Of a stretch of DNA of 64,000 nt, positions 32,301 to 33,287 are shown in pieces. The stretch covers positions 660,348 to 724,347 of the forward strand of contig NW_004797290.1 of the NCBI RefSeq assembly GCF_000002075.1, in the 5' to 3' direction. The notes under the pieces are model-generated. The model was not told the DNA's origin. It worked only from the letters and a program-made list of their open reading frames with translations, and ran no database searches. Positions within the stretch are counted from its first letter, which is position 1. Each line of letters begins with the position of its first letter. This stretch comes from Aplysia californica (lineage: Eukaryota). Both the position numbers and the translations under genes were made by a program.

Positions 32301-33287
32301 TCAGAGTAGAAAGTCTGGGACAGTTTGATCCAAACTTGAGTCACGTAGACTGCGTTGTCCTCCCAGCGACGGCACTGACATTGTGTGTATGTTATTATTG
32401 CGGGAGTTTGACCACCTCAGACCAGACGCTTGAGGGACCAGCACAGGGTCGTGGGTGCAGCAGGACTGCTCGTACGTAGGAGAGTTCATGTTCTCCAAAT
32501 CTGGCACAGTATGGTCGCTTGGACTGCCTGGCACTGGAGGGGTCAGCGAATCCCAGTCCACGTCTGACCCAGACGAATCGGAATCGGCATTGGCCATGCT
32601 CTCGTCTCGCACCAGCAGGATGTCCTGGGTGTACGCCATGCCCTCATCCATGTCCACAGAGTAAGTGGTGGTGACAGAGTGAGCTTTGAGCTTCTGCGAA
32701 CGCTGTGGCGATTTTTGATGACGTTGTTGATGCCAGTCAAGCTCAGGAACTGTCCACTCCATTTCTGGAATTGCAGGAACTTCGGAAGGGCGTGAGGCTC
32801 TGGTGAGTTCTGCCAGGAGACCGCTGGTGTATTTATCACTAGCCGGGTGCTGTAACATTAAATCACTGTCTGAATCGTGGGTTAACAACGACTCTACAGC
32901 CACATCAATGTCTCCTCTCTCGTCAAACGCTCTGCTATTCAGCATTGGATCATTGAGAATCATGTCTTGGAGATTCCAAGATGAATTAATAAGGGTACCT
33001 CGTGTATTTCTTTCTTGTGATGGTACAGAGATCATTTCATCTGAACTGACATAAGAGGATTCTTTACAACTATAGGACCTAGTAGAAGCAGTCTTTTTCC
33101 AGTGCTCTGATTTCTGCAGCATATTATTATCATCTTGTTTAATGCTTCTTTTGCAACCGAAAGGGGTGGGCCTAGAGGGTGAATCCCAGCTTTCATCAAG
33201 GTCAGCCAAAGTTTCATGACAGTACAAATTGATAACCTTTTTTTTGGCCACCTTCGGCACTTTGAAAACAGCATCGCCTCCTTGCAT
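32301..33287 (-). CDS. Uncharacterised S/D/P-rich, probably disordered protein (~328 aa, MQGGDAVFKVP...DQTVPDFLL)
   Basis: Longest ORF in the window (32301-33374). A pyrimidine tract + CAG acceptor (exon starts 33309) lies inside the first 29 ORF codons and is followed by GGCACC-ATG at 33287, so the true start is probably this Met. An A-rich (minus-strand U-rich) 3'UTR-like region runs down to ~28770, and promoter motifs lie upstream at ~34800-35150. No family recognised; a coding contribution from an upstream exon (partly in the gap) cannot be excluded. Confidence 0.75.
   Translation of the reverse strand: MQGGDAVFKVPKVAKKKVINLYCHETLADLDESWDSPSRPTPFGCKRSIKQDDNNMLQKSEHWKKTASTRSYSCKESSYVSSDEMISVPSQERNTRGTLINSSWNLQDMILNDPMLNSRAFDERGDIDVAVESLLTHDSDSDLMLQHPASDKYTSGLLAELTRASRPSEVPAIPEMEWTVPELDWHQQRHQKSPQRSQKLKAHSVTTTYSVDMDEGMAYTQDILLVRDESMANADSDSSGSDVDWDSLTPPVPGSPSDHTVPDLENMNSPTYEQSCCTHDPVLVPQASGLRWSNSRNNNIHTMSVPSLGGQRSLRDSSLDQTVPDFLL

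Follow-up and report, generated by a model that had tools for sequence, protein, structure and literature searches.

A reading frame on the minus strand of the Aplysia californica window (the whole stretch of 64,000 nucleotides analysed here) belongs to a real, spliced and uncharacterised gene, whose family is lineage-restricted and was found only in heterobranch gastropods. Conservation in this family is limited to motif-sized islands, which is the pattern of a protein that would work through short motifs. Judging from the motifs, we envision that the protein is a PP4-docking, phosphorylation-tuned, bivalent COP1 ligand. We hold this joint model tentatively, with slightly less than even confidence.

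The frame runs from 33287 down to 32301 and encodes 328 amino acids (P0001); the plus strand of the same interval is full of stops. The gene is laid out as follows.

35104..35111, strand not assigned: TGACGTCA, a perfect CRE palindrome that lies some 360 nt before the mapped part of exon 1 and is one of 2 in the 64-kb window
34691..34745, minus: non-coding exon 1, mapped part (X4 contig joint 33308->34690, 55 letters on the exon-1 side)
33310..34690, minus: 5'UTR intron, 1381 nt, GT-AG (X4 contig joint)
33288..33309, minus: 5'UTR part of exon 2, 22 nt, ending with a Kozak-like GGCACC
32301..33287, minus: coding sequence of P0001, single exon, 328 aa, predicted disordered, single copy (from the ORF, genome search and AF2)
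28763..32300, minus: 3'UTR, about 3.5 kb (X4 contigs; AATAAA at 28790-28785)

The exon 1 coordinates are those of its mapped part, and the real 5' end may differ. This spliced leader holds no ATG and, by a frame check, carries an in-frame TGA immediately before the splice, so Met1 lies at 33287. A 357-aa frame starting at ATG 33374 was ruled out, that ATG falling inside the intron. Contigs of run X4 span 28763-29087, 29108-31473 and 31480-33308, with two small gaps that are not bridged, and their sole joint within the gene is the one across the 5'UTR intron. The single coding exon and the long 3'UTR of the original prediction are thus both borne out, the latter by X4 contigs that reach 28763. 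In the 3'UTR, counts of ARE, CPE and Musashi elements were not above those in shuffles, and a Pumilio-like excess was dropped when it was reduced to 3 sense versus 2 antisense sites. The locus is single copy, and a search of the genome for paralogues with P0001 and P0016 as queries found none. The exact P0001 protein is already present in NCBI/UniRef.

The 5'UTR intron contains an N stretch (33612-33757) and a repeat rich in CTAGAT; this CTAGAT/TCTAGA-rich low-complexity sequence, at 34150-34660 of the window, draws many unrelated reads and contigs, and a dispersed repeat is seen around 36200-36900. Upstream of exon 1, positions 35104-35142 hold what we take to be a CRE palindrome together with a YY1-like ATGGCGG element, adjoined by (CTT)n sequence around 35210-35300. 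The CRE palindrome is possibly a promoter element. The tail-to-tail neighbour is an RCOR/CoREST gene (plus strand; Pfam REST_helical), whose polyA site at 28342 lies about 420 nt from the minus-strand 3' end of this gene near 28763. The head-to-head neighbour occupies 39819-57000 on the plus strand, with a first coding exon near 39864 and Pfam DRY_EERY near 41215; we take it to be a CLASRP-like SR protein gene. Short frames at 8986-9345 (minus) and 16906-17403 (plus) resemble fragments of LINE-type reverse transcriptases.

To follow expression, four runs were mapped on 27000-38000: X4, which consists of contigs, and X17-X19, which are polyA raw reads from one study. Evidence for transcription comes from contigs of the single run X4, which is probably RNA, its nature being a guess. 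It covers this gene at a depth of about 50-68, versus 167 on the neighbouring RCOR end. In X17-X19, depth is zero on the ORF, 0-0.25 at the 3' end of the gene and 5.7-11.8 at that of RCOR; thus, expression of the gene would be restricted, low or inducible. Reads of X17-X19 at 29894 and 30974 were discounted as short partial matches to A/T-rich sequence. When runs containing the stretch were searched for, no RNA run was among the 15 matches listed.

The protein had been called an orphan. In fact, a gastropod family exists, with 12 other matching protein clusters. Query included, homology searches retained 5 of 974, 8 of 3,679 and 10 of 3,122 candidates, and 11 of 1.84 billion representatives, for 13 clusters in total. 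The search that returned 10 of 3,122 was word-based, used 12 sequences and missed the known members P0006, P0013 and P0016, so the family may range wider; the exhaustive search of the 1.84 billion representatives used one query sequence, not a profile. Seven of the 12 other clusters have named sources (Bulinus, Physella, Biomphalaria, three Elysia species and Plakobranchus), all heterobranch gastropods, and the two homologue genera whose taxonomy was checked are Panpulmonata. Named homologues are all labelled hypothetical or uncharacterised. Five of their locus tags, entered without underscores, brought up no paper, in a search outside which supplements could list them.

No characterised family accounts for the protein: Pfam scans of P0001 and of five family members gave no domain, the PDB gave 0 matches at E<=10 to a 12-sequence profile, and the ESM Atlas held nothing at or above 0.9 (best 0.81, to a growth hormone receptor tail and C3orf70; nothing for aa 215-272). 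The lack of a folded domain also agrees with the AF2 model (mean pLDDT 50.6, pTM 0.18), which contains two short helices, at 27-35 (low confidence) and 152-163.

Twelve of the 13 clusters were aligned, leaving out P0005 (a near-duplicate of P0004) and extra cluster members. Across these 12 sequences the homologues are 28-43% identical to P0001; half of the rows (six) belong to a single sacoglossan-like group and so do not count as independent. Mean block identity to the query rises and falls sharply along the protein: 1.00 for FKVP, 0.64 for 21-34, 0.08 for 35-150, 0.53 for 153-160, 0.08 for 175-183, 0.10 for 184-219, 0.53 for 220-243, 0.84 for 244-264, 0.12 for 265-318 and 0.56 for 319-326. 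Linkers between the conserved islands thus show 8-12% identity in the same alignment. Twenty-three columns are invariant (12/12): F8, K9, V10, P11, L21, C23, E25, L30, W34, D228, W245, S247, T249, P250, P253, S255, P256, D258, H259, V261, P262, D263 and D320. The islands and motifs, all on the minus strand, are these.

33255..33266, minus: FKVP, aa 8-11, candidate PP4R3/SMEK EVH1 docking motif; invariant 12/12
33237..33254, minus: basic patch, aa 12-17, either resembling an NLS or contributing to a kinase docking site; 4-5 K/R among the 7 residues that follow FKVP in 10/12
33186..33227, minus: L[YF]CxE(T)(L)xxLxxxW, aa 21-34, predicted helix; L21, C23, E25, L30 and W34 invariant
32808..32831, minus: YxxGLL-like island, aa 153-160, predicted helix; pattern in 10/12, block identity 0.53
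32739..32759, minus: VP site 1, EWTVPEL, aa 177-183; strict motif only in P0001 and P0002, block identity 0.08
32559..32630, minus: ILLVRDESM..DSDSSGSD, aa 220-243, a hydrophobic stretch followed by an acidic one; block identity 0.53, with D228 invariant
32520..32558, minus: DWxSxTPPxPxSP, aa 244-256, TP and SP sites, overlapping the LIR-like WDSL; W245, S247, T249, P250, P253, S255 and P256 invariant
32496..32516, minus: VP site 2, DHTVPDL, aa 258-264; D258, H259, V261, P262 and D263 invariant
32310..32330, minus: VP site 3, DQTVPDF, aa 320-326; V323 and P324 in 11/12, the exception being P0016

The motif strings quoted in the original prediction were all located in P0001: EMEWTVPEL at 175-183, SDHTVPDL at 257-264, the C-terminal SLDQTVPDFLL*, FKVPKVAKKK at 8-17 and SDSDSSGSDVDWDSL. 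They read as quoted except the last, in which the residue preceding DSDSS is actually A (ADSDSSGSDVDWDSL). The islands expected to be conserved were FKVP, the VP motifs and WDSL. FKVP and DHxVPD are indeed kept and WDSL is kept in part, but two more islands had been overlooked, L[YF]CxExxxLxxxW and the TPPxPxSP cluster.

The strongest of these signals are the VP sites. The count of nine VP dipeptides in P0001 was right and is far from chance: shuffles average 1.34, and nine or more occurred in 0 of 20,000. Its three [DE]xxVP[DE] sites are likewise matched in 0 of 20,000 shuffles (mean 0.03). Primary papers on the COP1 and PP4 motifs are reportedly Uljon 2016 and Ueki 2019. The COP1 consensus is given as E/DQxVPE/D (PMC7923445, in excerpt) or as (D/E)(D/E)(X)XXVP(D/E) (PMC8151852, in excerpt). 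DHxVPD (258-263), present in 12/12 aligned sequences, conforms to this consensus. A further acidic-xx-VP site is found in 12/12 under a relaxed pattern, which was picked after viewing the sequences and yields two such sites in 0.09% of shuffles, and in 8/12 under the strict one; the four sequences without a strict second site show VPH, VPN or VPQ. Three COP1 degrons had been claimed. The second survives this comparison and the third mostly does, but the first, EWTVPEL, occurs in 2/12 only, so the family design would be bivalent and the presence of three degrons a lineage feature. Members of the P0016 cluster (P0016-P0019) are the most divergent. P0016 has lost the terminal VP and has EWSVPQL elsewhere, a motif resembling the lineage-specific EWTVPEL of P0001; this cluster suggests turnover of VP motifs that would maintain two sites.

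The COP1-type sites lie in predicted disorder, with AF2 pLDDT of about 50-66 around them and no fold. The genome encodes a COP1 WD40 exon 25/27 identical to human RFWD2, with further COP1-like exons, the WD40 domain being divided among many; it also holds a DET1 gene. On one scaffold, DET1 (about 1.322-1.328 Mb, plus) and a COP1 exon (2,057,371-2,057,403, minus) lie about 0.73 Mb apart, a shared location that may be chance or old linkage. In the mollusc literature, COP1 or RFWD2 was absent among the matches listed. On the strength of the motifs, the protein is probably bound by COP1.

At the other end of the protein, FKVP lies within 17 residues of the N-terminus in 12/12 sequences, and is a coil in the AF2 model of P0001. 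EVH1 domains of PP4R3/SMEK bind FxxP or MxPP in disorder (PMC7776573, PMC8786283, in excerpt), and the FxxP ligands form the ELM class DOC_PP4_FxxP_1 (PMC7145657, in excerpt). The peptide crystallised with SMEK1 EVH1 (PDB 6R8I) carries FKVP, and an AKVA control hardly competes (PMC12994818, in excerpt). The four residues of P0001 are the same as the core of this model peptide, and the acidic-x-hydrophobic context upstream resembles that of CENP-C, a proposed PP4 platform with the motif DVVFKKP (PMC7776573, in excerpt). Many FxxP sites fail to bind, according to excerpts of the same paper, and shuffles of the sequence contain FxxP in 24% of cases and exact FKVP in 0.075%. FKVPKVAKKK had been read as NLS-like as a whole; the basic patch at 12-17 keeps this reading, but FKVP itself is the match to the PP4 motif. 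The genome has PP4R3, with EVH1 exons that match PDB 6r8i_A and keep Leu69 (chain position 70, residue 69). Modelling of a complex between aa 1-40 and a substitute PP4R3 EVH1 domain, taken from a metagenome contig, gave scores of 0.30 and 0.26 versus a mark of 0.34, in runs without alignments or folded controls. On balance, we lean towards the protein docking on PP4. COP1, DET1 and PP4R3 are general animal genes; their presence in this genome is necessary for the model and gives it weak support.

Between these two ends, just before DHxVPD, the LIR-like motif had been proposed. P0001 has the acidic [WFY]xx[LIV] core DVDWDSL, W245 is invariant after an acidic tract, D/E occupies X1 in 10/12, and WxxL/I is kept in 9/12. 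A LIR here is possible but more weakly backed: in one sequence the motif is at chance level, an acidic WxxL occurring in 72% of shuffles. We infer that the 244-256 block is mainly a proline-directed phosphorylation cluster beside the degron. Degron-proximal phosphorylation promotes COP1 binding in ETS1/2 and blocks it in ETV4, and ETV1/4/5 have tandem COP1 degrons (PMC8151852, in excerpt). Other short motifs brought little: SIAH and beta-TrCP motifs are absent in 11/11 family proteins, PP1 RVxF occurs in 0/12, an Fbw7 CPD in 1/12 at a non-conserved place, PP2A-B56 in 5/12 at differing places, and a class II PDZ end in 6/12.

How could these parts work together? In the joint model, FKVP would sit in the EVH1 groove of PP4R3, while DHxVPD and the C-terminal DxxVPD would engage COP1 WD40 domains in tandem, like the paired ETV1/4/5 degrons, leading to fast turnover via CRL4-COP1-DET1. 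A proline-directed kinase would phosphorylate T249-P and S255-P just upstream of the DHxVPD degron, and docked PP4 would dephosphorylate both residues, tuning the affinity for COP1 and hence half-life. In the weakest step, a third partner would be recruited by the pair of helical islands, making the protein an adaptor or competitor. Its level would then report the balance of kinase and PP4, like a Tribbles tail without the pseudokinase, and the protein as a whole would be a short-lived signalling link between PP4 and COP1. Counting against this model, invariant His259 and the motifs at 21-34 and 153-160 are unaccounted for by COP1 or PP4.

The same motifs could be put to other uses. A domain-less adaptor might couple the PP4 holoenzyme to CRL4-COP1-DET1, delivering PP4 or helix-bound partners to COP1, or act as a signal-induced double decoy titrating both enzymes (a CRE is present upstream); the phospho-switch, and possibly the ATG8 motif, would decide its fate. 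We regard this as rather unlikely. Somewhat less unlikely, though still well short of probable, is a protein that meets COP1 alone, as a two-site substrate or decoy, FKVP, the basic patch and the helix forming one longer motif for an importin, a MAP kinase or a transcriptional cofactor. The VP sites are, after all, the most specific match, and K9 and V10 are invariant though FxxP requires F and P alone. However, FKVP is exactly the EVH1 model peptide core, the residues following it vary freely while it does not, and a MAPK D-motif pattern, which fits 5/12 N-termini, fails in the other 7.

We consider it distinctly improbable that the protein serves as a soluble autophagy receptor, or is degraded by two routes, with ATG8 recognising WDSL and COP1 or PP4 being taken along to autophagosomes. 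The acidic tract, invariant W245 and acidic X1 suit LC3B binders, whose features include a Trp X0 preceded by acidic residues and an aromatic X3 (bioRxiv 10.64898/2026.01.05.697675, in excerpt), and one of the three sequences outside WxxL/I has WxxF. However, the core is broken in the other two, P0003 (X3 C) and P0016 (X3 T), the motif is common in shuffles, and invariant S247, T249, P250, P253, S255 and P256 are not needed by a LIR. It is also improbable, if a little less so, that we are looking at a fast-evolving member of a wider, perhaps known animal family with other partners, its resemblance to COP1 and PP4 ligands being partly coincidental. Searches are weak for low-complexity proteins, as the members missed by the word-based search and the single-sequence exhaustive search illustrate; yet Pfam, PDB and the ESM Atlas returned nothing at their thresholds, and two distinct motif classes match in register. 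That the ORF is no functional gene, as the three polyA runs without reads on it might suggest, is hardly credible: the spliced contig, the intact homologues in 12 other clusters and the annotated protein records speak against it, and conservation at the level of motifs largely refutes it. The original prediction had made transcription and conservation of the frame a point to check; the frame is conserved and, if X4 is RNA, transcribed.

Each motif class in this model is already known; their combination was not found in the literature searched. Papers listed for PP4 together with COP1, mostly concerned with plant miRNA biogenesis and including one resource paper, mention no such adaptor in their titles or in the opening of their abstracts. 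COP1-DET1 sets the levels of c-Jun and C/EBP. It also sets those of ETS factors (PMC8151852, in excerpt), and among the targets of PP4 are CRTC2 and DNA-damage proteins (PMC7453979, PMC12994818, in excerpt). If the model is true, the protein would compactly join phosphatase targeting to ubiquitin-dependent turnover, in a way that can be tested directly; built almost wholly of docking motifs, it would also be an example of a lineage-restricted regulator assembled out of short motifs. The clade in which it is found includes neurobiology models and schistosome host snails.

Among known systems, the Tribbles proteins (TRIB1-3) have a C-terminal COP1 site in the same register, E/DQxVPE/D (PMC7923445, in excerpt) as against DHTVPD and DQTVPD here, and the adaptor logic is a proposed analogy. 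P0001 is nevertheless not a member: it has no pseudokinase or any folded domain by Pfam, PDB and AF2, and its family combines at least two VP sites, versus one in Tribbles, with an N-terminal FxxP. Like ETV1/4/5 (the PEA3 group) and ETS1/2, it has candidate tandem degrons in predicted disorder; neighbouring phosphorylation alters COP1 binding in those factors (PMC8151852, in excerpt), whereas the phospho-switch here is proposed. Unlike ETS or bZIP substrates of COP1, P0001 has no ETS or other DNA-binding domain by Pfam, and the degrons that are adjacent in ETV1/4/5 are replaced by two conserved sites that are separated by 62 residues in P0001 and by 19-74 in homologues. Ligands of the PP4R3/SMEK EVH1 domain (CENP-C, Prp16, Centrobin and CCDC6) share an FxxP in disorder, FKVP being that of the 6R8I peptide and the upstream context that of CENP-C (PMC7776573, in excerpt). 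No sequence homology to these ligands was found, and here the FxxP is paired with COP1-type degrons. CRTC2 is mostly disordered too, but the CRTC Pfam domains are absent from P0001. The likeness is thus one of functional analogy only, to a regulator controlled by PP4/SMEK that counts COP1 among its regulators (PMC7453979, in excerpt).
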